Source: a candidate division WS1 bacterium (GTDB lineage Bacteria; Armatimonadota; Zipacnadia; Zipacnadales; UBA11051). Taken from it: a DNA stretch of 64,000 nucleotides. The notes beneath the pieces are model-generated. The model made no database searches. It had not been told where the DNA came from and was given only the letters and a program-made list of their open reading frames with translations. Each line of letters opens with the position of its first letter. The stretch's first letter is position 1. The stretch lies in assembly GCA_012518355.1 (NCBI GenBank), contig JAAYSP010000072.1, positions 7,644-71,643 on the forward strand, read 5' to 3'. Positions 1,904-59,670 of this stretch are shown here, in pieces. Both the position numbers and the translations under genes were made by a program.

Positions 1904-1991
1904 GCCGAGGTGGTGGAATTGGCAGACACGCTAGCTTGAGGGGCTAGTGACCGTCTAGGTTGTGCGGGTTCGAGTCCCGCCCTCGGCACCA
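1904..1991 (+). tRNA. tRNA-Leu (anticodon GAG), long variable arm, CCA encoded
   Basis: Manual fold: acceptor GCCGAGG/CCTCGGC, anticodon loop TTGAGGG, T-loop TTCGAGT; aligns to E. coli Leu tRNA architecture. Confidence 0.9.
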
Positions 1992-2009
1992 GCATTGAGG
2001 ATAGTTTGC

Positions 2010-2085
2010 GGGCGGTTAGCTCAGCTGGAAGAGCGCTTCCCTCACGCGGAAGATGTCAGAGGTTCGAGTCCTCTACCGCCCACCA
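2010..2085 (+). tRNA. tRNA-Val (anticodon CAC), CCA encoded
   Basis: Cloverleaf: acceptor GGGCGGT/ACCGCCC, anticodon stem CTTCC/GGAAG with loop CTCACGC, T-loop TTCGAGT. Confidence 0.85.
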
Positions 2086-2088
2086 TAC

Positions 2089-2164
2089 GCGGGAATAGCT
2101 CAGCTGGTAGAGCATCAGCTTCCCAAGCTGAGGGTCGCGGGTTCGAGTCCCGTTTCCCGCTCCA
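2089..2164 (+). tRNA. tRNA-Gly (anticodon CCC), CCA encoded
   Basis: Acceptor GCGGGAA/TTCCCGC, anticodon loop TTCCCAA, T-loop TTCGAGT, discriminator U. Confidence 0.85.
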
Positions 2165-2212
2165 TAGCATGATAAAATTCGGCAGCGCAGTATCCGTTTG
2201 CATGGTTTGCGA

Positions 2213-2288
2213 GCGGGAGTAGCTCAGCTGGTAGAGCGCCACCTTGCCAAGGTGAAAGTCGCGAGTTCGAGTCTCGTCTCCCGCTCCA
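2213..2288 (+). tRNA. tRNA-Gly (anticodon GCC), CCA encoded
   Basis: Acceptor GCGGGAG/CTCCCGC, anticodon loop TTGCCAA, T-loop TTCGAGT. Confidence 0.85.
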
Positions 2289-2297
2289 ATTATTTCA

Positions 2298-2372
2298 GGC
2301 GGCATAGCCAAGAGGTAAGGCAACGGTCTGCAAAACCGTTATTCACCGGTTCGATTCCGGTTGCCGCCTCCA
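2298..2372 (+). tRNA. tRNA-Cys (anticodon GCA), CCA encoded
   Basis: Acceptor GGCGGCA/TGCCGCC, anticodon loop CTGCAAA, T-loop TTCGATT. Confidence 0.85.
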
Positions 2373-7077: not shown

Positions 7078-8649
7078 TCAGCCTCCATTTTTCAACAGAC
7101 CATAGATCAGCGAATCGACTACTGCCTGCCAACTGGCCTCGATGATGTTTTCGTGGACACCGACAGTGCCCCAGCTATCCTCAGCGTCGGCGGTCTGCAC
7201 GAGCACACGTACCGCCGCTTCAGTGCCTTCATCAGCGCGCAGCACTCTGACCTTGTAGTCCACAAGACTCAGCTCTTCTAGTTTCGGGAACAGTTCCGTC
7301 AATGCCTTTCGCAGTGCATTGTCGAGCGCATTCACTGGCCCGGTACCCTCGCCGGCGGTGTGTACTTCTCTGTCTCCGACGGCTACCTTGAGAGTAGCCT
7401 CAGAGTACGGTTCGCTGCCCTCATCAGCTTTGTAGACGGTAATCCGATAGCCGTGCAGGTCAAATGGAGGTAGCAGGCCCTCCTTCAGGCGACGTGCCAG
7501 AAGCTCAAATGTAGCCTCCGCTGCATCAAATTCGTACCCGCTCTTCTCTAGATTCTTGACCTGCTCCAGTACTGTGGCCACCAGGGGGTCGTCACGCTGA
7601 AGATCAGGCCAGATACGTTGGAGCTTGTGCACGATGGTGGAACTTCCGGAGTAGTCCGAAACCAGGATGCGCCGACTGTTGCCCACAGTTTCAGGCTCTA
7701 CATGCTCAAACGATGAGGGTTCTTTCAGCACCGCGTTGACATGCATGCCTCCCTTATGGGCAAAAGCAGATGCCCCGACGTACGGCTGTCGAGTGTCGGC
7801 AGGGAGATTGGCGATCTCGCTCACGAAATGCGCCAACTCGGTTATCTCGGTCAACTGGCCTTCTGGTAGGCAAACTGTGTCCATCTTGAGCTCGAGGTTG
7901 GGGATGATGACACACAGGTTCGCGTTGCCTGACCGCTCGCCGTAGCCGTTGATGGTGCCTTGCACCTGGCTGCAGCCCGCCTGGACTGCGGCCATACTGT
8001 TGGCCACGGCCAGACCGGCATCGTTGTGACAGTGTATGCCAAGTGCAATCTGGCACTCTGCGGCTACCGTCTCGACGATCTCACGTATCTCATCGGGCAG
8101 TGAGCCACCGTTGGTGTCACACAGCACCAGTGCATCCGCACCGCCTCGCTGTGCGGCTCGCAAGCACTCCAGAGCATATGCCGCATCAGCTTTGTAGCCG
8201 TCAAAGAAGTGCTCAGCATCGAACATCACCTCTTCACGATGAGCCTTGAGGTAGGCGATGCTGTCCTCGATCATCTGCAGGTTTTCATCCAGAGAGACAC
8301 GCAGCACTTCAGTGGCATGGAAGTCCCAGCTTTTGCCGAAAATGGTGATGACTGGTGCGCGGCTTGCCAGCAAATCCTGAAGTTGGCTGTCGTCTTCGAC
8401 GTTGATGTTGCCTCGTCGAGTGCTGCCAAATGCCGTGATGCGCGCGGTTTGCCAGGACATATCAGCGGCACGCTGGAAGAATTCGCGGTCACGAGGATTT
8501 GTCTCGTTTGGCCAGCCGCCCTCGATGTATGCAACGCCCACTTGATCCAGCTTCTGCGCGATGCGCAGTTTATCCTCTACGCTGAATGCCACACCTTCTG
8601 CCTGGCAGCCATCGCGGAGAGTGGTATCATATACGTCAACTCTTTTCAT
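7078..8649 (-). CDS. cimA: (R)-citramalate synthase, Geobacter type (LeuA/HCS superfamily)
   Basis: MKRVDVYDTTLRDGCQAEGVAFSVEDKLRIAQKLDQVGVAYIEGGWP N-terminus and about 520 aa length match GSU1798-type CimA; AGGAGG SD 8 nt upstream of the ATG at 8649. Confidence 0.85.
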   Translation of the reverse strand: MKRVDVYDTTLRDGCQAEGVAFSVEDKLRIAQKLDQVGVAYIEGGWPNETNPRDREFFQRAADMSWQTARITAFGSTRRGNINVEDDSQLQDLLASRAPVITIFGKSWDFHATEVLRVSLDENLQMIEDSIAYLKAHREEVMFDAEHFFDGYKADAAYALECLRAAQRGGADALVLCDTNGGSLPDEIREIVETVAAECQIALGIHCHNDAGLAVANSMAAVQAGCSQVQGTINGYGERSGNANLCVIIPNLELKMDTVCLPEGQLTEITELAHFVSEIANLPADTRQPYVGASAFAHKGGMHVNAVLKEPSSFEHVEPETVGNSRRILVSDYSGSSTIVHKLQRIWPDLQRDDPLVATVLEQVKNLEKSGYEFDAAEATFELLARRLKEGLLPPFDLHGYRITVYKADEGSEPYSEATLKVAVGDREVHTAGEGTGPVNALDNALRKALTELFPKLEELSLVDYKVRVLRADEGTEAAVRVLVQTADAEDSWGTVGVHENIIEASWQAVVDSLIYGLLKNGG

Positions 8650-8701: not shown

Positions 8702-8743
8702 GAAACACAAAACTCCGTCCCTGTTCAATTCAGAGACGGAGTC
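8702..8743 (-). terminator. intrinsic terminator of the T-box leader: stem ACTCCGTC/GACGGAGT followed by UUUUGUGUUU
   Basis: Inverted repeat plus U-tract read on the reverse strand, 52 nt upstream of the cimA ATG. Confidence 0.7.
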
Positions 8744-9018
8744 ATCCGCGGTACCACCCTGGTTACTCCCCCCCGAAAAGGAGGAGCCACTTTGCCAACA
8801 CGGGCCACCTGCGGCCGATGTCGTCTTCAGGATAACGGTAGAAGCTCCGACGAAGTCTACTCGGCCGCCTGTTGTCGGCCAGGCCTTTCGATTCGCAGCT
8901 CGAGGGTGATATTCAGATCGGACTTACCTGCCCGCTCTCACCATCCGGGCTCGCTGTCCGGTATAAACCGACCCTACTTGTCCCCTTCACAGCTTTTACG
9001 TGTCACGACTTAAATTGT
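8702..9018 (-). promoter_or_regulatory. T-box riboswitch leader (tRNA-sensing transcription attenuator) upstream of cimA; candidate specifier AUC-A (Ile) at complement 8908-8910 (CUC-G Leu alternative at 8902-8904)
   Basis: Canonical T-box sequence AACCAGGGTGGTACCGCGG (complement 8746-8764) immediately 5' of and overlapping an intrinsic terminator; about 315-nt leader length; amino-acid biosynthesis gene downstream. Confidence 0.75.
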
Positions 9019-9024
9019 GGGCTC

Positions 9025-9053
9025 AGTATAACATGAAATCGGCAGCAGAGCAA
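9025..9053 (-). promoter_or_regulatory. promoter for T-box leader/cimA: -35 TTGCTC (9053-9048), 17-nt spacer, -10 TATACT (9030-9025)
   Basis: Hexamer match and spacing; places TSS near 9018. Confidence 0.4.
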
Positions 9054-9070
9054 CACCACGATCACCCCAG

Positions 9071-9250
9071 TACTGTTTAACTCGCACACATACTGTCTCG
9101 CTCAGCAGACAGTGCTTCACTCACACACGTACTACCTCACCCATACAGGTACTGCTTCACCTGCCTGGGCATCGCTTCATCCACACAAGTACTGCTTCAC
9201 TCAAACACGTATTGTCTCGCTCAGCCAGGCAGTGCTTCACTTGTACAGGT
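9071..9250. repeat. nine tandem degenerate 20-bp direct repeats (plus-strand consensus aCTGcTTCAC tCAcACAcGT), two units containing TGTCTCGCTCAGC
   Basis: Units start every 20 nt from 9071 to 9231; array begins 6 bp after the upstream gene stop and ends 17 bp from the -35 of the T-box promoter. Confidence 0.75.
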
Positions 9251-9262
9251 AAGCGGGTCCAG

Positions 9263-11989
9263 TCAGTTGCCCTCCCCTTTACTCCATGAGGCGGTGCTGT
9301 ACATCGTGAAGCTCGGGTGGCCCGGTGCCGTCCTGATTGGGTAGAAGTGAAAGTGCGTCTCATCGCCGTCTACACTGAAATCAGGCGGTTCTGATACGTG
9401 CATGGTGATCACATCACCATCAGTTTCTAGTCGGTCAAGATACATCAGTGAGTACGCTCCGTCAGCATGAGTCACATGAATTGGTGTGCCTGCAGGCCAA
9501 TCTCCAGGATCTCTATCCGTGCTCACCCGCACAGCGGTGGAGCCCTCCAGGCTACCGCTGGCCTGCGCTATGTCACCGGTAACCGATGGAGCCGTTTCCA
9601 GCACAAAATCTCCCAACTGTAGAAGTGTGCCATCATGCATTTCGGCAGCAATCGGTCTGCCCTGCTGGAGCCTCACGATCGCAAACGCCGCATCTGTGAG
9701 CAGCCCAAATTGGTCGAGGGCGATGGGTTGCATAGGCTTTTGCAGGGGAGCGATAATCAGATCTGTATAGTCGCCGAAAACCACCTGTGCTCCCACGAGC
9801 TCACCGGCACAGGTCAGCGTGGAAAACGCCCCTAGCCCGGCCTCCTGCTCATAGGGCCACAGTAGAGCGGTGAAGCGACTTTGCAGGCCCTCTTCCCCAC
9901 GTCGGCGCACTATCACCAGTGGCTGACGAACCTGATCTACTCGGTCGGAATCTCTGTTGCACCGCTTTATGCTTGGTGCTGTGGCGAGGTAGTATTCACT
10001 GTCGGCAGCCGACAGGACGTGCAGCTCCATCTCTGGTTTGTCGGGCTCGACGTACGCAAAAGTAGCGACAAAGTGCTCCAGGTCGACCGCTTTTCGCAAA
10101 TCTTTGATCAATCCGTAGGGATTGAACTGAAGTCTGGCGCCTTCTCCAGGCTTCTCACTGGCGTTAGCTGCGTCTTCTGCCACCAGGTCAAAGCCGCCCT
10201 CGTTGATATACGGCACAAGCTTCCGACCGGGGCCCAATAGGCTGTACTCGAGCGGCTGTAGCGGCACATTCGCATCCGCTGTCTGGTCATGATCGGCGCT
10301 TCCACGCATAAGCCAGTCATGTTGTGAGCCACCATGCACATCGAAGAAATCTACCACATAGGCCGGCGCATCGGGGCGGTTCACAAGCACTGTAGAGCGC
10401 TGGTAAGTGCTGCAGGCTTCATAGGAAGGGGGACCGGCCATGTCAACGCAGACAGCCTGGCAGAGTTGCCCGGTGTGCCAGGTCCGTAGCGTACCGGCCC
10501 AGGGCACCTCGCGTGAGCCGTAGGATGCGGGAGTCTCATCTACGACCACCAGATTGTGGGCGGCTGCCGAGGCGGTGTAGCGGCGGTACTTGGTGTGAGT
10601 GTATCCCAGGTCAGAGACCAACTCATGACCGTATGCCCAGTAGGTAATATTGAGAGGATCCTGATGGGCATGTCCGTGAGATCCTGAGAAGTGCAACTGA
10701 GCTTCGGCCGCCAACGGCCCTGTCTCCGATTCGAGCACAGCATGCCCCATACTCCACAACAGTACAGATTTGGGCTGAGTTGACGGTGTCGTTCGATCGC
10801 CTGCCCAGGTATCGTGCACACATGCGTAGAATCCGTCGGGGTAAGCCAACGGGTTCATGGCGGTAAGCACCTTCTGAAGAAACAGCTCTGATGTGGATGG
10901 GTCATAGTCATCCAGCCGTTCACCCGTTGGTGGCCAGGTGTAGCCGGGTGGATCAGAGTATCCGTGCGCTGATGTGAACGCCGACCTGATGCCATTCGCA
11001 GTCTGCCTGTGGTAGGATACCGCTGCCTCGCTCCATACACCATCGGCCAAAAACATCTCGTTCAGCGTTCTGCGCAGAATGTTTACGCCTTCATGGACAT
11101 AGTCAGGCCGATCTACGATCCGCCCTGCAGATATCAGCCTTCGTGCCCATGATGGCGTCATGTTGCTGATGTGGCGCTCAAAAGTCAGTGTGAAGTCCGC
11201 CATAGCCTCTATGAGATCGGTCTTGACCAGTTCGCGGACGTCCACATTTGTCTCGGCGCTCAGGCGAGTGAATTCTTCACTATCATACAGGATGTCATAG
11301 GCCTGAAGCATGTCGACGTCGATTTCACCGTAAAACCAGGTTGAGCCCAGTTTCTGTGACAGATATGGAAAAGGCGGCTCATTTCCCGCCCACATGGGCC
11401 CACGGAAACTGTAGTCGCTTAGCCCGTGTATGGGTAGACCAGGGTAAATCTCCGCCATCCGGTGCAGTATCACCACCGCTCTGCGTGCGTATTTGGCGTC
11501 CTGCGTCTTCCACCATGCCAGGGCGCAGTTATAAGCCATGTTGGCCCAGTAGTAGCGAGCATGGTAATCAATCTTGGCCTGGAAGAAGTGATGAAAACCA
11601 TCCGGTCCGTCATAGTACGGGTAGCTTTGGATCTGGCCAGTTGGAGACAGGTGCTCATACACCCTATCCATGGGATACTTCTCGCTGGGATAGACGTGTC
11701 CGCAGTAGGCACATGTGAGCCGGTCAGGGGCATCTGTGCTCCACTCTAGCTGGCCACCCTGGCTGCCGGCAGTGCAGTTGGCACACTTGATCTCCAGGAA
11801 ACCAGCTTTCTCAGTGATCATATTGCGCACTTGTTGCTCTGTAAACGCGAGACACTCTTCGGCCTGCTTCACATAGGTGTCAGATACATCACCGGGCTCA
11901 TAGACCGGGTGAGACTGGCCGCGGGCAGGAATTGCCACAAGTGTTAAAGCAGGGATGAGACAGATCAGGCTGTGAAGAGCACACTTCAT
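9263..11989 (-). CDS. secreted heparinase II/III-like polysaccharide lyase family protein
   Basis: Signal peptide MKCALHSLICLIPALTLVAIPARG; alginate-lyase-like N-domain plus Hepar_II_III-like region (SGSHGHAHQDPLNITYWAYGHELVSDLGY); start at the ATG at 11989 with a GAGAGGA SD. Confidence 0.75.
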   Translation of the reverse strand: MKCALHSLICLIPALTLVAIPARGQSHPVYEPGDVSDTYVKQAEECLAFTEQQVRNMITEKAGFLEIKCANCTAGSQGGQLEWSTDAPDRLTCAYCGHVYPSEKYPMDRVYEHLSPTGQIQSYPYYDGPDGFHHFFQAKIDYHARYYWANMAYNCALAWWKTQDAKYARRAVVILHRMAEIYPGLPIHGLSDYSFRGPMWAGNEPPFPYLSQKLGSTWFYGEIDVDMLQAYDILYDSEEFTRLSAETNVDVRELVKTDLIEAMADFTLTFERHISNMTPSWARRLISAGRIVDRPDYVHEGVNILRRTLNEMFLADGVWSEAAVSYHRQTANGIRSAFTSAHGYSDPPGYTWPPTGERLDDYDPSTSELFLQKVLTAMNPLAYPDGFYACVHDTWAGDRTTPSTQPKSVLLWSMGHAVLESETGPLAAEAQLHFSGSHGHAHQDPLNITYWAYGHELVSDLGYTHTKYRRYTASAAAHNLVVVDETPASYGSREVPWAGTLRTWHTGQLCQAVCVDMAGPPSYEACSTYQRSTVLVNRPDAPAYVVDFFDVHGGSQHDWLMRGSADHDQTADANVPLQPLEYSLLGPGRKLVPYINEGGFDLVAEDAANASEKPGEGARLQFNPYGLIKDLRKAVDLEHFVATFAYVEPDKPEMELHVLSAADSEYYLATAPSIKRCNRDSDRVDQVRQPLVIVRRRGEEGLQSRFTALLWPYEQEAGLGAFSTLTCAGELVGAQVVFGDYTDLIIAPLQKPMQPIALDQFGLLTDAAFAIVRLQQGRPIAAEMHDGTLLQLGDFVLETAPSVTGDIAQASGSLEGSTAVRVSTDRDPGDWPAGTPIHVTHADGAYSLMYLDRLETDGDVITMHVSEPPDFSVDGDETHFHFYPIRTAPGHPSFTMYSTASWSKGEGN

Positions 11990-12176
11990 GTTCGATCGTC
12001 CTCTCACTTGTGCTCATACGGATGAAATGCTTTAATTGCTATAGTCATGGTCTTAAGTCTTGGCCTACAGTCTATGATGTTCTACACATGCACGTCCAGT
12101 CCTAGTTTTGCGGTTATAGTCTACCGAGATACCATGAATTCGAGATGGATGTCTTCCTTTGCGGATGTGATTGCCT

Positions 12177-12584
12177 ATGATGGAGAACGCAGAGCAGCTA
12201 AGCGAAACCGCGGCCATGGACCCAGTGACGAGTCTGTTGTTGGGGTTGATTGCCGTAGTAGTGGGTGTAGTGATCATGTGGTTGGCAGCTATCATCGTCC
12301 ACGTCAGGGATGCCACATTTGGCCGTACTGTGTTCGCTACACTGATGATGTCTGCTCTGACCGTTGGTGCCGTTAGCATGATATCGCGGAGTACAGAAAA
12401 CGCGCTGATAGCAGTGGGGGTGGCAGCGGTAGTCGGTGCGGTGATGGCCATCAAATTGATCTATCGAACAACTGTGTGGAAAGCTGCAGGAGTGCTAATT
12501 CTCAACATCATGATGCAAATCATCATATCTTCCCTGTACATTCAGGCGCGCCTGGGGGGAGCGGTGACATCGGGCCCATCCTAG
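12177..12584 (+). CDS. hypothetical small polytopic membrane protein
   Basis: ORF with 3-4 hydrophobic helices; weak SD; divergent from the lyase gene. Confidence 0.4.
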   Translation: MMENAEQLSETAAMDPVTSLLLGLIAVVVGVVIMWLAAIIVHVRDATFGRTVFATLMMSALTVGAVSMISRSTENALIAVGVAAVVGAVMAIKLIYRTTVWKAAGVLILNIMMQIIISSLYIQARLGGAVTSGPS

Positions 12585-12588
12585 CCGT

Positions 12589-12617
12589 TTGCCGAACTTT
12601 TGCCGGTGTGCTATACT
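12589..12617 (+). promoter_or_regulatory. candidate promoter for rnpA operon: TTGCCG-17-TATACT
   Basis: Hexamers and spacing; starts 5 nt after the upstream ORF stop. Confidence 0.3.
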
Positions 12618-12650
12618 TGTCACTCAACTGACATCGAACGAACGCCAACG

Positions 12651-12998
12651 GTGTGCGTCGTGACCGCAGTCCCCACTATACGTCTCCGCAGAGATTTCCG
12701 GCGCATATTCTCCCGGGGGCGGAGGTTCCACAGCAAGCGGCTTACGATGGTGGTTGCTGCTGCCGAGACTGAGCGAAGCCGGCTGGCGTATGTGGTAAGC
12801 GGCAGGCTCTGCGGTGCGGTCAAACGCAACCGCATTAGACGCAGGCTGCGTGAAGCGGCCCGTCGTCTAATTCCGTGCTGCTCGAGACATTGCGACATAG
12901 TTCTAATCGCTAAATCCGGGGCTGTAGAAGCCGATTATCGCACTCTATATGAGGAATTTGTCTCCCTGCTGTGTGCCGCCAGGCTTCTGAAGAGCTGA
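12651..12998 (+). CDS. rnpA: ribonuclease P protein component
   Basis: RLRRDFRRIFSRGRRFHS ... VKRNRIRRRLREAARR are the RnpA hallmark basic motifs; start uncertain (GTG 12651 or 12660, neither with an SD; ORF-track TTG 12600 would overlap the promoter). Confidence 0.7.
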   Translation: MCVVTAVPTIRLRRDFRRIFSRGRRFHSKRLTMVVAAAETERSRLAYVVSGRLCGAVKRNRIRRRLREAARRLIPCCSRHCDIVLIAKSGAVEADYRTLYEEFVSLLCAARLLKS

Positions 12999-13008
12999 TG
13001 ACGGGGAT

Positions 13009-13290
13009 ATGTTTGCACGATTGACCATCTGCCTCATCCGGCTGTACCAGCGGTCCATATCTCGGCTCATGCCCTCGATGTGCCGGTTTACGCCTTCGTG
13101 TTCGCAGTACTCCATTCGTGCGTTTCAGTTGCACGGCTTCTGGCGAGGGCTGTACCTGACCTGCCTGCGCATAGGGAGATGTAACCCTTTTAATGCGGGC
13201 GGCCATGATCCGGTGCCAGGCGATTCTGAAGTGGCTAACACAGCTTCTCAAACAGATTCTGATCAAAACAAGCTGACGGAGAGACAGTAA
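13009..13290 (+). CDS. yidD: membrane protein insertion efficiency factor YidD
   Basis: CRFTPSCSQYSIRA...GHDPVP matches the DUF37/YidD signature. Confidence 0.85.
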   Translation: MFARLTICLIRLYQRSISRLMPSMCRFTPSCSQYSIRAFQLHGFWRGLYLTCLRIGRCNPFNAGGHDPVPGDSEVANTASQTDSDQNKLTERQ

Positions 13291-13292
13291 AC

Positions 13293-15008
13293 TTGACATA
13301 CATGAGTAGCCGGAGCATCTGGACAGTGGCCCTTCTGCTAATGCTGACATACTGCACGTGTGTCAGCATGGTTGTTGCTGACACGAATACCGATGGTATC
13401 AGCTTCCAGGAAGGGTTGCCCGCCGAACTGGTGATCGACACCAACCTTCCGTTAGACGACCAACTGGGACAGCTCGACGCGATGGTGCGTTGGGGCGAGG
13501 AAAACGAACCCAAGCCGAAAGGCGGGCTACTGTCTGGCATCAAGAAAACGTTTGCTGGTCCTGAAGGACCGACGCCGACAACAGTCAGCGCGCTGCGCGA
13601 CAATCTCGGTGAGATACAGGGCGTCCAGGTGACTATAACCGGCATTTACACTGCCTCTGAGGATGGAGCCAGGGGGATATTGACGACTGCAGAGGGCACT
13701 GTCCCGGTGACCCTTGGCGGCGGCGTACAGCCGGAAGGCTTCGGTGAAAGCCCGCTTGGCGGGGTTCCGGCTGTCGTGGCCGGTCTGGTCGAAGTCGTCA
13801 ACACTCCACCCGAGCCTTCCATTCGCGTTACCAGGCTCACTCCTGCCGGCTGGCTGGCCACCCTGCGCATCGCGCGCATCCACGAGATTCAGGGCGATTT
13901 TAAGTCCGCACAGGCGGCCTACACGCAGGCCGCTGACTCAGCCCACACAGCAGGGGCCCTGTTCAGCGGCTTTGCCACAGTCCGTGCCGCCGAACTGGCT
14001 ATGGAACAACTGGCAGATCCTGCCCAGGCAGAGAAGCTCTACAACAAGGCATGGACCCAATGCGGGACGCTCGATAGCCAGGGGCACTGCGCCTATTTGA
14101 CGTGGCAGCTAAAGGACGGAGTGTGGGAGGAGAAGCCCCTGCGCAACGTAGTGGGGCCGGTGCTCGATAGCCTCAATCGGGAACGCTTCTGGTACCGGGT
14201 TGTTGCAGGCTTCGTAGCACTGGGCGGCAGCAACCCCGGTATCGGTGTCATCCTGCTCGCCTTTGCCGTCCGCCTGATGATTTGGCCATTGACGCGCAAG
14301 CAGCTCGAGTCAGCTCAGTCCATGCAAGCCCTGCAGCCGCAGATGAAGGCACTGCAGGAAAAGTATGTTGACGACAAACAGAAATTCCAGGAGGAATTCT
14401 GGAAGCTGTGTCAGAGCCGGGGCGTCAATCCTCTGGGGGGCTGTCTTCCGATGCTGATCCAGTTCCCCATCCTGATCATGCTGTATCGTGGTATCCGTGC
14501 CTACATCTGGCATTTCGACAACGCATCGTTCCTGTGGATCCACAACCTGGCTGCTCCTGACATGATTCTACTCGTGGCATACACCATAAGCATGATCATG
14601 TTCCAGAAGGCCACACAACGGATGCAACCTGCCGCGGCGATGAATCCTCAGCAAGCGCAGCAGCAGCAGATGATGACCTGGATGATGCCTATCATGTTCT
14701 TCTTTTTCTTCCAGAGTTTCCCTGCCGCCTTCCTGTTGTACTGGCTGTCGAGTAACGTGTTCTACTTTGGCGAGCAGTACGTACACAGAACGATGCGCAG
14801 CAAGTCTGCCGCAACCTGTGACGACGCTGCGGCCGATACGCCCAAGCCTGCGGGTGGATTGGTCTCAGGGATGGTCAAGCTACTATCTCCAGAAGATAAC
14901 TCCGAACAAAAGGAAGCTGAGACACAGCGGACCAGTTACGCGGACCGCAAGGCAGCCGAAGCGGGCAAGAAGGGCCGTAAGATGGACGCCAGGAAGAAAC
15001 GTCGGTAA
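13293..15008 (+). CDS. yidC: membrane protein insertase YidC with large N-terminal extracytoplasmic domain
   Basis: C-terminal 60-kDa insertase core (RLMIWPLTRKQ...GCLPMLIQFPILIMLY); TTG start 13293 (ATG alternative 13302). Confidence 0.85.
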   Translation: MTYMSSRSIWTVALLLMLTYCTCVSMVVADTNTDGISFQEGLPAELVIDTNLPLDDQLGQLDAMVRWGEENEPKPKGGLLSGIKKTFAGPEGPTPTTVSALRDNLGEIQGVQVTITGIYTASEDGARGILTTAEGTVPVTLGGGVQPEGFGESPLGGVPAVVAGLVEVVNTPPEPSIRVTRLTPAGWLATLRIARIHEIQGDFKSAQAAYTQAADSAHTAGALFSGFATVRAAELAMEQLADPAQAEKLYNKAWTQCGTLDSQGHCAYLTWQLKDGVWEEKPLRNVVGPVLDSLNRERFWYRVVAGFVALGGSNPGIGVILLAFAVRLMIWPLTRKQLESAQSMQALQPQMKALQEKYVDDKQKFQEEFWKLCQSRGVNPLGGCLPMLIQFPILIMLYRGIRAYIWHFDNASFLWIHNLAAPDMILLVAYTISMIMFQKATQRMQPAAAMNPQQAQQQQMMTWMMPIMFFFFFQSFPAAFLLYWLSSNVFYFGEQYVHRTMRSKSAATCDDAAADTPKPAGGLVSGMVKLLSPEDNSEQKEAETQRTSYADRKAAEAGKKGRKMDARKKRR

Positions 15009-15073
15009 TGAAACCTGCGCATTAGGCAGTGCTTTCGCTACCATACCATAGCTGCACAAAGAGGGGGCCTTCC

Positions 15074-15814
15074 ATGAGATCGGTGGAGGTCAGCGATAAG
15101 ACTATAGAGGCGGCAAAAGAGGCTGCGCTTGAGCAACTCGGAGTGCCTGAAGACCGGGTGCAATTCGAGGTGCTCAGAAGCCCTGACACAGCGGCCGGAT
15201 TGCCCAGTGGCGCAGAGTATGTCATCAGAGCTACGATAGCCGAAGATGCTGACAGCCCGGAGGGCACATCAATGACAGACAAGGCCTCGCCGGCCCAAAC
15301 TGACGGCTTTCCCGAAGCCCCGCAGATTAGTGACCGCGACAGTCGGCTGCAACAGATCGCCGAACGCGCCTGTCAGCTAACTACAGACATTATCGGCCTC
15401 ATGGGTGCTGCCGATGGAAAGGTCACACTCACCGGAACTACCGACCGCGAGATCGCTTTGGACATCTCAACAGAAAATGCAGGTATGATCATCGGCCGTC
15501 ATGGCGATACTCTAGATGCACTGCAGCTTATCGTCGCCATAGGGGCGAACAAGGGCTTCATCGAGGGAGCACGGGTCATACTCGACACAGAAGGATATCG
15601 AAGCCGCCACGTGGAGTCGCTGCAGGATATGGCTCGATCTTATGCAGACAGAGCCAGGGAGAAAGATCAGGAGCTTGTTATCGAAGGCCTCAATGCATAC
15701 GAACGGCGTATCATCCACATGACATTGCGCGATGACCCCGATGTGGAGACTTACAGCGAGGGTGACGGCAACGACCGCGTGCTCGTCATCTCCCCTACCG
15801 CCACCGCCAGCTAG
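15074..15814 (+). CDS. jag: RNA-binding protein Jag/KhpB (Jag_N-KH-R3H)
   Basis: Jag_N-like N-terminus, GxxG KH region (MIIGRHGDTLDALQ) and R3H-like C-terminus; start at the ATG at 15074 after AAAGAGGGGG. Confidence 0.8.
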   Translation: MRSVEVSDKTIEAAKEAALEQLGVPEDRVQFEVLRSPDTAAGLPSGAEYVIRATIAEDADSPEGTSMTDKASPAQTDGFPEAPQISDRDSRLQQIAERACQLTTDIIGLMGAADGKVTLTGTTDREIALDISTENAGMIIGRHGDTLDALQLIVAIGANKGFIEGARVILDTEGYRSRHVESLQDMARSYADRAREKDQELVIEGLNAYERRIIHMTLRDDPDVETYSEGDGNDRVLVISPTATAS

Positions 15815-51912: not shown

Positions 51913-51991
51913 TGGCGGGGCTGACGGGACTCGAACCCGCGACTTCCACCTTGACAGGGTGGCACTCTAAAACCGACTGAGCTACAGCCCC
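51913..51991 (-). tRNA. tRNA-Asp (anticodon GTC), CCA encoded
   Basis: Acceptor GGGGCTG/CAGCCCC, anticodon loop CTGTCAA, T-loop TTCGAGT; close to E. coli tRNA-Asp. Confidence 0.85.
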
Positions 51992-55738: not shown

Positions 55739-57973
55739 TTAGGGCTCCGTACTACGCACTGGCAGGTCCCCACAAAGCCTACCGCGCAAGCGTGTGTAGC
55801 GCCGCGCCTCCTCCCCACGCCTCACCGCAGTCCATAGCCCCTTGTCATCGCCGATCACCACCGCCATCTTCTCGGCCCGTGTCAACGCGGTGTACAGCAG
55901 GTTGCGCTGAAGCATGATGTAGTGGGTGGAGTGGAATACCATCACGACCGCCGGATACTCGCTGCCCTGTGACTTGTGGACCGTTAATGCGTAGGCCAAT
56001 CGCAACTGATCGGCCTCGGAGAACTCATAGGAAACTCGCCCCTGATCGAACTCTACCACAAAAGTGCTGTTGCGAGGATCTATCTGGAGCATGCGGCCGA
56101 TGTCGCCGTTGTACACTTCCTTATCGTAGTTGTTGACGTTCTGCAACAGCCGATCTCCGCTGCGAAATATCTGATTGCCATGCCGAAGCTCAAACCCACC
56201 GGGCCTGGGCGGGTTCATCTTTTCCTGAAGTATACGATTGAGTTCGATGACTCCGGCAGGGCCTCTATGCATCGGCGTGATGACCTGGATATCATCACGC
56301 CGGAAGCCGAGACGCGGCAAAGCTAAGGTGACCACCTGGAGCACGGCGGCGGGTACCTCGTCCGCTCTCTGCCGGCTCATGAAGACCGTATCCTCACCGT
56401 TCCAATCACGGACTGGTGTGAATTCCGGAAACTGCCCTTCGCGGATGCGATGGGCGTTGTGGACGATGTCACCGCCCTCATCCTGCCGGAATATCCTTTG
56501 CAGACGTGCCACAGGCACCACTTCTGCGGCGACCAGATCGCGGAGAAACGAACCCGGCCCGACACTTGGCAACTGATCTGCATCGCCGATGAAAACCATC
56601 TTAGTGCCTGATTTGATCGCTGACACCAAATCGTTGGCTAAGAGTGCGTCCACCATGCTGGATTCGTCCACTATCAGTAGATCGGTCTGCAACGGCTCGT
56701 CCGCGTTGTGAGAGAACTCGTGAGTACGTGGGTCATAGACCAGAAGGCGATGAATCGTGCTGGCCGACTTTCCCGCCAGCTGCGACAGGCGCTTGGCCGC
56801 CCGCCCTGTCGGTGAACACAAGGACACATGCCAGCCCTGGCTGTCACAAGCATCGCAAATGGCACGTGTGACGGTGGTTTTGCCAGTGCCCGGACCGCCG
56901 GTGATGACCGATATCGGCCCCTGCAGGGCCATATGCACAGCCCGCAACTGTTCGGATGATAGCTCCGTCGCGCCCATCGTCACTCGTTGCCCCAGCCACT
57001 GTACGAGCGTATCATACTCGGGCGCTGAGGGGCTGGGCGAAGCGCTGAGAGCCAACAGCCTTGCCGCCAGGTTCTTTTCCGTACTAAGCATGCCGGGCAG
57101 ATAGTATGCGCTACAGCCCTCAAAATCCTCGCGCTGCAACTGTCTCTCGCGTAACACCTGGTCAAGCTGTAGTTCCACGGTCGCTTCGTCCAGCTTCAGC
57201 AAGCGACAAGTTTCTGCGAGCAGTGTGTCTGCAGGAAGAAAGAAATGCCCCTCATCACTTGCTCGTCGCAGAATATGCTTCAACCCTGCAGTGATGCGCG
57301 CAGGGTCCTCCAAAGCGATACCGGCAACTTGTGCGATACGGTCAGCGGTCAGAAATCCTATCCCGTAGACATCGTCTGCCAGCCGATACGGCTCCTGCTC
57401 GATCACACTCATGGAACGGGACCCGAAGTGCTGATATATGCGTGCGGCCAAAGCGGGCCCCAGCCCGTGCTGCTGAAGAAACACCATCACCCGATGTGCA
57501 TGCTCACTGGCTTTCCAGGCTTCACGCAAGGCGGCGGCTCGAGTGCGCCCGATGCCCTCGACTTCTCGGAGCCGTTCAGGTTCCCTGTCAAGCACATGCA
57601 GCGTCTGCTCACCAAATTTGTCCACCAGACGCTTTGCCATGACCGGACCGACACCATGCACAAGACCCGAGCTAAGATAGGCTGCGATAGCCTCGCGGGT
57701 GACCGGTCTGACAAGCTCATAGTGTTCAAATTCATACTGGCGGCCATACTTGCGGCTGTCCACCCATTGCCCATGGAGGCGCAGACTCTCACCATTTGTG
57801 AGCCCTAAAGTGTTGCCGACTGCTGTGAATTGCGTGCCTCCAGCTCCGATTACAAGGACAGTGTACCCGTTAGCGTCGTTATGATACACGATACGCTCTA
57901 CCGTGCCTTCTACTACCTGCCGCTGATCTGAAGCCGGTTCTGTACTAGACTTGTCGCGGTCAAACAGACGCAT
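55739..57973 (-). CDS. recD2: RecD2-type ATP-dependent DNA helicase (RecD/TraA family)
   Basis: N-terminal OB-like region; Walker A GGPGTGKTT; SF1B helicase motifs; start at the ATG at 57973. Confidence 0.85.
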   Translation of the reverse strand: MRLFDRDKSSTEPASDQRQVVEGTVERIVYHNDANGYTVLVIGAGGTQFTAVGNTLGLTNGESLRLHGQWVDSRKYGRQYEFEHYELVRPVTREAIAAYLSSGLVHGVGPVMAKRLVDKFGEQTLHVLDREPERLREVEGIGRTRAAALREAWKASEHAHRVMVFLQQHGLGPALAARIYQHFGSRSMSVIEQEPYRLADDVYGIGFLTADRIAQVAGIALEDPARITAGLKHILRRASDEGHFFLPADTLLAETCRLLKLDEATVELQLDQVLRERQLQREDFEGCSAYYLPGMLSTEKNLAARLLALSASPSPSAPEYDTLVQWLGQRVTMGATELSSEQLRAVHMALQGPISVITGGPGTGKTTVTRAICDACDSQGWHVSLCSPTGRAAKRLSQLAGKSASTIHRLLVYDPRTHEFSHNADEPLQTDLLIVDESSMVDALLANDLVSAIKSGTKMVFIGDADQLPSVGPGSFLRDLVAAEVVPVARLQRIFRQDEGGDIVHNAHRIREGQFPEFTPVRDWNGEDTVFMSRQRADEVPAAVLQVVTLALPRLGFRRDDIQVITPMHRGPAGVIELNRILQEKMNPPRPGGFELRHGNQIFRSGDRLLQNVNNYDKEVYNGDIGRMLQIDPRNSTFVVEFDQGRVSYEFSEADQLRLAYALTVHKSQGSEYPAVVMVFHSTHYIMLQRNLLYTALTRAEKMAVVIGDDKGLWTAVRRGEEARRYTRLRGRLCGDLPVRSTEP

Positions 57974-58278
57974 GATGCTCGAGGACTCCTGCAAGAGTTT
58001 TCCACAATTGCTCCACAACGCAAGCTGTGCGCTGTGGAAAAGCGGCTGTGCGTTAGATTTACTGCCTAGGTGCCACACTGCCAATCAGCGCTGGTAAACG
58101 GCATGATTTGCATCTACAGCTGCTGACATACTCCGCAACAGATACGTCTAGTTTTCCACATTTAGAGATGCTTGTCCACACTGGGACGCAGAATGCCCCT
58201 CTAACCGTCCTGAAAACGCTCCGGTATTCCGGTATTTATGTCACCGAAAGCAGGCGGTCAACTGTATGCAGCTACAGA

Positions 58279-59670
58279 CTACTGCCGATTAATCGCGCTT
58301 GATGTCAAAGCGCGCTGGCGCAGCCTATCATCCCACCGAGCAAGCGCGCGCCAGTCCTCCTGGAGAGAGTACTCTGAGAACCACTCCTCGGTGTACTCAT
58401 GCCCGGCCATCTGCAAGAGTTGTGCGTCCTGCAGCCCCAGAAACAGCCGCTCGGCAGCAAGTGACATCCGTACCTGCTCACCTACATGGAAGAGGCTGGT
58501 CGTGGCGCTCTGTTCCTGCATGTCCCCCGTGGCGTCCGAATCCTGCGTACCATCTGCTACGACATCACCAAATGATGAGCTGACTACAATCCCATCAAGC
58601 CCGAGATAGTACGCCAGGGGCCCTGCAGCATAGGAATAGACAGCGGGAAGGCCATTCTGTATGCTGGGGCCGTCATCACCGGGGTCCAGAAAACCCCACA
58701 CAGTCTTGCCCATAGAGCGCAACTTGTCCACGGTCTTCGGGGATGGCTCAGTCAATCCCTGCAAAGGTAGCGCCACACGGTCCACCTGGTCAGCCAATTC
58801 CAGCGCAGTCTCCGCACTGTCCACCGTGACCCCTATGCGACAGTCGGGACTGTGGGAGCGCAGAAGTCCTGCAGCGTGGGCAAAACGTCCGACATCTTCC
58901 GTCTCCGCTGGGCGGTCTGTCGGCCACACGTAGATGTCGGACGGTGACGCTACATGCCGCCAATGCCTGGCCAAAGCCTCACCGAAAGCTGCCCACGCAT
59001 CATCGAACATCTCCTCACCAGGCTCAGCCGTGACTGTCTGAAGCTCGCCAGCCTCGTCGAAATAGTGAACCTGCGTAGGCTCTCCAGTACCGAACATCCC
59101 AAGATAACTGGTAGGCCCGTCAATTCCGCAGTCATGGCACAGTCTTCGAAATCGGTCCAGTCGTGTGAAATCAAACTGCCACTGCCCATCCGCGACACGC
59201 CGCCAGTCACAGAAAGCCCGCCCCACCTGTGCAGACTGCACTCCCAGGGTTGCAAGGGCCATCATGTAAGCCTCAGCCGTGGCCCACCATGGTTCGGTGA
59301 AGAGCGCCGCGCCCTGACTGTGGCCTAACAAAGACCATGGCTGCCAGACCTCCAATCCCAGAGACCAATCAGACGGGTTGGGAAGCAGCACATCGTGGAC
59401 ATGAACCGTGAACGGAAAATGACCACATGGGGTACCATCAGCAGAGAACTCGAGGGCACTTGTGTAGACGCCTGGGGTGGCATCAGAAGGCACAGCAACT
59501 CGAAGCCACAGCACTGTATCCTGCGTGCTGCTAACAGACACCCCCTTTGGCCCGATGTCACACAGCATCACCGCCGTTGCCGCACGCCCATTCGGAACTT
59601 CTGCCGGAGATCTGACTTCGTACAGCTCTACGTGTCGCCGTGCCAGGCTTTGGCCATCAGGGCCGTGCAT
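58279..59670 (-). CDS. hypothetical protein, Trp-rich glycoside-hydrolase-like/DUF4091-like (tentative); possibly the C-terminal part of a frameshifted larger gene
   Basis: ORF begins 18 bp after the stop of the upstream CBM9-like ORF, in another frame, without an SD. Confidence 0.5.
   Translation of the reverse strand: MHGPDGQSLARRHVELYEVRSPAEVPNGRAATAVMLCDIGPKGVSVSSTQDTVLWLRVAVPSDATPGVYTSALEFSADGTPCGHFPFTVHVHDVLLPNPSDWSLGLEVWQPWSLLGHSQGAALFTEPWWATAEAYMMALATLGVQSAQVGRAFCDWRRVADGQWQFDFTRLDRFRRLCHDCGIDGPTSYLGMFGTGEPTQVHYFDEAGELQTVTAEPGEEMFDDAWAAFGEALARHWRHVASPSDIYVWPTDRPAETEDVGRFAHAAGLLRSHSPDCRIGVTVDSAETALELADQVDRVALPLQGLTEPSPKTVDKLRSMGKTVWGFLDPGDDGPSIQNGLPAVYSYAAGPLAYYLGLDGIVVSSSFGDVVADGTQDSDATGDMQEQSATTSLFHVGEQVRMSLAAERLFLGLQDAQLLQMAGHEYTEEWFSEYSLQEDWRALARWDDRLRQRALTSSAINRQ

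Follow-up and report, generated by a model that had tools for sequence, protein, structure and literature searches.

Nine degenerate repeats of about 20 bp lie between the end of a 908-aa gene and the promoter of a cimA/leuA-family gene in the 64,000-nt stretch of DNA analysed here (the window). Our present results indicate that this array is probably a lineage-specific, non-coding minisatellite (VNTR), shaped by replication slippage or unequal recombination and not needed for the control of cimA. Strains with 96-100% identical flanks carry nine, five or three units, which agrees with the replication-slippage minisatellite that a first-pass annotation of this DNA had considered as one possibility. 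The other possibility it had considered, a cooperative array for a regulator of the Lrp/AsnC type, is not supported, given the lack of conservation of the array, the absence of a match to the Lrp consensus, the confinement of the motif to this single place in the DNA searched and a phasing that is only approximate.

Architecture of the array and of the cimA locus

All components of the locus are encoded on the minus strand, in the order 908-aa gene, 12 nt, array, 18 nt, promoter, T-box leader and cimA. The 908-aa gene (9263..11989, -) codes for a secreted-looking protein with a weak match to the heparinase II/III C-terminal domain, and a terminator scan found no terminator between this gene and the cimA promoter. 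Its stop codon (TGA, 9265-9263) is followed in the sequence by a non-repeat spacer of 12 nt (9251..9262, -), where only 6 had originally been counted, and then by the array itself (9072..9250, -), which is evident in the sequence, in the output of Tandem Repeats Finder (TRF) and in self-match. The units abut head-to-tail and occupy non-coding DNA between stop codon and promoter.

On the cimA-sense strand the consensus of the unit is ACCTGTGTGAGTGAAGCAGT, the reverse complement of the consensus given in the first-pass annotation. In the direction of transcription, all on the minus strand, the units are u1 (9250-9231, ACCTGTACAAGTGAAGCACT), u2 (9230-9211, GCCTGGCTGAGCGAGACAAT), u3 (9210-9191, ACGTGTTTGAGTGAAGCAGT), u4 (9190-9171, ACTTGTGTGGATGAAGCGAT), u5 (9170-9151, GCCCAGGCAGGTGAAGCAGT), u6 (9150-9131, ACCTGTATGGGTGAGGTAGT), u7 (9130-9111, ACGTGTGTGAGTGAAGCACT), u8 (9110-9092, GTCTGCTGAGCGAGACAGT) and u9 (9091-9072, ATGTGTGCGAGTTAAACAGT). 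A uniform length of 20 bp, as first described, holds for eight of them; u8 has 19. The presence of nine consecutive degenerate units upstream of the T-box and cimA is confirmed by TRF, which reports a period of 20 along with a best-scoring period of 60 bp (2.9 copies, score 167), and by the lag-20 self-match, which reaches 0.53 in the array vs 0.253 +/- 0.037 when every 180-nt stretch of the window is taken. No second place with a comparable lag-20 self-match was found anywhere in the 64 kb. A further repeat search returned 5 copies spaced 20 nt.

The 60-bp period reflects a structure of higher order, in which the units form three triplets, each composed of an A-type, a B-type and again an A-type unit. 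Identity between the first triplet (u1-u3) and the last (u7-u9), which are 119 nt apart, is 82%. Pairwise identity among units ranges from 50 to 90%, and the best-kept part of the unit is the core GTGAAGCA. The units are old and degenerate, so that the array has persisted for some time. It is G+T-rich on the cimA-sense strand, with a GC content of 0.50-0.55 throughout, and contains two perfect 11-nt runs of alternating purines and pyrimidines (GTACGTGTGTG and GTATGTGTGCG) as well as one run of 8 nt. A perfect 7-8-7 palindrome, ACTGTCT-N8-AGACAGT, spans 22 bp at the u7/u8 junction (9092..9113) and is unique in the window. A near-palindrome had been noted in two units: one B-type copy is this perfect one, while the second copy is degenerate. 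The 20-bp period had also been equated with two helical turns, placing all copies on the same face of the DNA. At 10.5 bp per turn, however, the phase drifts by about -34 degrees per 20-bp unit and by about 274 degrees from the first unit to the ninth, a geometry that fits a wrapped or superhelical complex and not a single helix face.

Downstream of u9 follows an 18-nt stretch (9054..9071, -) with weak likeness to the unit (6-11 of 20 positions when the next 2 nt are included). The distance of 17 nt between array and -35 hexamer given in the first-pass annotation proved correct, and in every allele described below it amounts to 17-18 nt. The predicted promoter (9025..9053, -) is of sigma-70 type, with -35 TTGCTC (9053-9048) and, after 17 nt, a TG-extended -10 TATACT (9030-9025), and would start transcription near 9018; it was read from the sequence, and a consensus scan, in which the -35 matches at 3 of 6 positions, gave no call there. 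Its layout is preserved in relatives without the array. The T-box leader, also proposed earlier, was verified at 8729..8999 (-) by a match to RF00230 of 103.8 bits (gathering score 93), and its terminator hairpin lies at 8743-8711. According to our reading of the Rfam alignment, the specifier triplet is AUC (Ile), also in two relatives, which fits an isoleucine gene of the citramalate pathway.

The gene controlled by this leader (7078..8649, -) codes for 523 aa with HMGL-like, HCS_D2 and LeuA_dimer domains and is named citramalate synthase in the sources. In an exact-protein look-up the ATG start at 8649 was matched, and the long ORF with a GTG start gave no match. Contigs encoding exactly this protein come from metagenomes of anaerobic digesters and biogas. 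Members of its cluster are labelled 'candidate division WS1 bacterium' by NCBI, and the genome collection has as its closest species representative an entry with the label 'uncultured Armatimonadia'.

Copy-number alleles and relatives without the array

Three alleles of the array were found. The nine-unit allele is present in six independent metagenome assemblies (L001-L006), all with an identical intergenic region of 613 nt and with flanks as in the window. The five-unit allele occurs on eight contigs (L088, L094, L095, L096 and L102-L105), whose intergenic regions measure 530-533 nt and whose flanking genes are 95.5-97.6% identical to those of the window at the DNA level; small indels of 1-3 nt exist within this class. 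The three-unit allele rests on one contig of 2.1 kb (L097), the only one returned by a metagenome scan with a 32-nt pattern from the 5' part of the T-box, and its flanks are 98.9-99.9% identical to the window. One more contig (L110) breaks inside the array, at u6; assemblers commonly break contigs inside repeats.

Differences in length between alleles correspond to whole units, with gaps of 20, 60 and 119 nt in register with the repeat. Alignment of the five-unit with the nine-unit allele requires gaps of 20 and 60 nt. The three-unit allele consists of u1, a u2/u8 hybrid and u9, and equals an exact 119-nt deletion across a 12-nt microhomology, CTGAGCGAGACA. The upstream copy of this 12-mer lies in u2 (9213..9224, -) and forms the joining point of the L097 allele, and the downstream copy lies in u8 (9094..9105, -), 119 nt away. 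We take the three-unit allele as real, because 12 shared nt are not enough to collapse assemblies made with k=127-141.

Each of the three alleles retains the first unit, the last unit and one of B-type, and the promoter spacer of 17 nt does not differ between them. Retention of the end units, of a B-type unit and of the GTGAAGCA core could be explained equally well by selection or by shared descent. When the nine-unit and five-unit alleles are aligned, identity is 79% in array columns, 91% in the promoter stretch, 94% in the T-box and 96-97% in the two genes. This faster divergence of the array than of its flanks may be read as a sign of weak constraint.

For the 908-aa protein, a database search returned no relatives between 97% and 65% identity. 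At 65% (L089-L093), 64% (L008) and 58% (L107) identity of this upstream protein, the order 135-aa gene, 908-aa gene, promoter, T-box and cimA is kept. These loci possess the promoter, the Ile T-box and cimA without any array, and their intergenic regions (419-422 nt) are about 190 nt shorter than the 613 nt of the window. TRF detected no tandem repeat in the corresponding region of L008. A further contig (L108, 62%) ends about 70 nt past the 908-aa gene and shows the stop and the promoter, but neither T-box nor cimA. In all four same-order relatives (L089-L093, L008, L107 and L108) the stop lies 9-21 nt from the -35, and the promoter has the layout TTGnnn-17-TAT(A/G)CT. As the stop abuts the promoter in these array-less relatives, the ancestral state was presumably a promoter abutting the preceding stop, and the array an insertion private to one species-level lineage. 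At the orthologous loci it thus appears to be dispensable. The first-pass annotation had named absence of the array or strong variation of its copy number among close relatives, combined with unchanged cimA expression on deletion, as what would speak against a regulator array; conservation upstream of cimA orthologs was checked, and the array is missing from all more distant same-order relatives, just as its copy number varies between nine, five and three among strains.

Two contigs from independent samples (L106 and L109, 99.7% alike), which represent a further lineage, carry a cimA about 96-97% identical to that of the window and have neither the 908-aa gene nor the array. Their homology to the window begins at about 9033, inside the promoter; further upstream, rnpA and the gene for 135 aa are present and about 70% identical to those of the window. 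Upstream of its promoter, L106 has a C/A-rich stretch, which is unrelated to the array. Everything upstream of the -10 is replaced in these strains (L106 1-1200 and L109 219-1420, compared with about 9033-12600 of the window), while T-box and cimA remain about 96-97% identical, an arrangement that points to recombination or replacement at the level of strains, joined within the promoter. A different change is seen in two contigs with the five-unit allele (L104 1-700 and L105 1-600), in which the 908-aa gene is cut to its last 60 codons and preceded by an ORF on the opposite strand, possibly the result of a rearrangement or inversion within the 908-aa gene.

For the minisatellite we propose the following course of events. 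The array would originate from slippage during replication or from unequal recombination among its 20-bp units and 60-bp higher-order units, and the same processes would reshape it; it would be an insertion that separates the stop of the 908-aa gene from the -35 of a promoter conserved in other respects. Concerning the source of the unit, comparison of the array with the leader, with the promoter and with the final 600 nt of the 908-aa gene gave no significant similarity on either strand. Control of cimA would rest on the constitutive-looking promoter and on the Ile-specific T-box attenuator, and the array, evolving in a nearly neutral manner, would at most shift the promoter by 60-180 bp from the end of an unterminated gene and may slightly alter promoter strength. 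A minisatellite of this kind is of little biological weight, though it could serve as a strain-typing marker for the digester lineage. It also means that a promoter normally abutting the preceding stop tolerates 60-180 bp of inserted repeats.

Comparison with known repeats and alternative readings

The array most likely represents a further case of the known intergenic VNTR or minisatellite type. With bacterial loci such as those used in MIRU-VNTR typing it shares head-to-tail, non-coding units of tens of bp and changes of whole units between close strains. It differs from them in that its units are strongly degenerate and have a 60-bp higher-order structure, and in that it is a single locus of an uncultured lineage, with no second copy in 64 kb, and not a member of a dispersed family. 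Plasmid iterons are similar as direct repeats of about 17-22 bp with roughly two-turn spacing; iterons, however, are conserved and essential and lie beside a rep gene and an AT-rich unwinding region, none of which applies here.

Several other classes of repeats were considered and rejected. The array is not a CRISPR, as the first-pass annotation had already stated, since its units abut one another and there are no unique spacers. Contingency promoter repeats are near-perfect units of 1-8 nt, situated in the spacer between -35 and -10 or in a reading frame, that switch expression on and off. Phase-variable repeats of this kind do not fit units that are 20 bp long, degenerate and wholly upstream of the -35, next to a promoter spacer of constant length. 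No similarity of the array to plasmids or phages was detected, and a loose two-unit pattern gave four matches in viral contigs, single and non-repeated, three of them in one homologous phage stretch; we regard these as chance matches and reject an origin from a mobile element.

Variable repeats near bacterial promoters do in some cases affect transcription. In the colibactin island of E. coli, the clbR VNTR consists of 8-bp ACAGATAC units, and alleles of 5 vs 20 repeats differ about 2-fold in reporter expression (PMC7364221). Like that VNTR, the present array is a strain-variable tandem repeat beside a promoter. The clbR units are however 8 bp long, near-perfect and situated in the 5' untranslated region, whereas those described here are 20 bp long, degenerate and located upstream of the -35. 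In the ctxAB promoter of Vibrio cholerae, variable TTTTGAT heptad repeats are reported to recruit regulators (bioRxiv 10.1101/2021.05.14.444153). The heptads resemble our array as direct repeats of variable number upstream of a core promoter, and differ from it as AT-rich, regulator-recruiting 7-mers, the unit here being G+T-rich on the sense strand and having no predicted binding protein. By analogy with these two cases, both variable and yet affecting transcription, variable copy number may be compatible with function.

The principal alternative to the minisatellite is accordingly a cis-regulatory VNTR, whose units would bind a multimeric protein (an activator or a nucleoid-type silencer) and whose unit number would tune the cimA promoter differently from strain to strain. 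We consider it unlikely. Apart from the precedents (PMC7364221 and bioRxiv 10.1101/2021.05.14.444153), it could explain why the end of the array is fixed 17-18 nt upstream of the -35 in all alleles, why the core and the terminal units are kept across them, and why one unit junction contains a perfect 22-bp palindrome of operator type. On the other hand, the array is lacking in relatives with the same promoter and T-box as well as in L106 and L109, it diverges faster than its flanks, the drift of about 34 degrees per repeat moves the units off a single face, and cimA already possesses a dedicated Ile T-box. The motif was not seen elsewhere either: outside the array, matches to the 20-mer (<=6 mismatches) and to the 12-nt core (<=2 mismatches) did not exceed chance, whether in the 64 kb of the window or in 1.5 Mb of loci retrieved for comparison. 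The sequence YAGHAWATTWTDCTR, the consensus of E. coli Lrp, has no match in 9072-9250 at <=3 mismatches, and its total in the window (32) lies below the 35 expected by chance.

A narrower form of this proposal, distinctly unlikely in our view, supposes a recent cis-regulatory addition, in which the units or the 22-bp palindrome of the B-type unit would recruit a putative multimeric protein and three, five or nine units would give strains of this digester bacterium different levels of isoleucine synthesis by the citramalate pathway, on top of the T-box. None of our findings points toward tuning of cimA by unit number. If it were true, it would present a case of repeat-based regulatory variation stacked on a T-box in a poorly known phylum.

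The array might also act as a physical DNA element, absorbing negative supercoils or shielding the cimA promoter, by mere spacing, against read-through from the gene upstream. The two perfect 11-nt and the one 8-nt alternating purine-pyrimidine runs would suit the former role; the latter would fit the lack of a terminator between the 908-aa gene and the promoter, and the near contact of stop and -35 in relatives. Yet the tracts are short and confined to three of the nine unit junctions, relatives manage with no spacer at all, A-tracts and other signals of curvature are missing, and the reading is purely inferential, so that we hold it to be very unlikely.

A role of the array as RNA is highly improbable. 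With no terminator before it, the array is probably transcribed together with the mRNA of the 908-aa gene, and might thus form a structured or protein-binding 3' UTR of that gene or, in read-through transcripts, an extended cimA leader. Its predicted folding, however, is not significant against shuffled sequences on either strand (z -1.9 and -2.0), no Rfam family matches it at E<=1, a scan gave neither promoter nor terminator inside it, and allele differences of 80 and 119 nt would break a conserved structure or a reading frame; moreover, the array is missing in relatives. Least credible of all is a part in replication or segregation, with the repeats as iterons, clustered DnaA boxes or parS-like half-sites, or else the scar of a mobile element. 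In favour, rnpA, yidC and jag lie 3-6 kb away, TCATCCACA in one unit differs from a DnaA box at a single position, and TGCTTCAC is, as read from the sequence, one mismatch from a parS half-site. Against this, TCATCCACA is the only DnaA-box-like match in the array, and a weak one (the window total being not above chance), the window has no parS, and neither dnaA nor a rep gene was seen among the scanned ORFs. GC skew makes no clear turn at the array, which at a GC content of 0.50-0.55 has no AT-rich unwinding stretch and no plasmid, phage or viral-contig relative, and which is dispensable in relatives.

Further features of the window and of related loci

The lineage labelled WS1/Armatimonadia carries an Ile-specifier T-box on its citramalate synthase gene, located at 8729-8999 (-) in the window, at 4437-4711 in L008 and at about 7770-8060 in L089. 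T-boxes are usually discussed in other phyla. Relatives whose neighbouring 908-aa protein is as little as 58% identical still have this leader.

Divergently from the 908-aa gene, the window encodes at about 12050-15814 (+) a 135-aa protein of unknown character followed by rnpA, yidC and jag, a set associated with replication origins; neither dnaA nor dnaN is present beside it. The divergent arrangement of the 135-aa gene, rnpA, yidC and jag is conserved in L008, L089 and L107.

At another place in the window (57998-58180), four DnaA-box-like 9-mers (TTTTCCACA three times and TTGTCCACA once, each with <=1 mismatch to TTATCCACA) are found within 185 nt, where the window-wide rate predicts about 0.03 matches. 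Two of them are located in the first ~90 nt of an ORF for a RecD2-like helicase (55739-58084, -), and the remaining pair in the gap that precedes a GH123-like gene (58279-59670, -). The window also contains a cluster of five tRNA genes at 1904-2369 (+) and a sixth tRNA gene at 51916-51991 (-).
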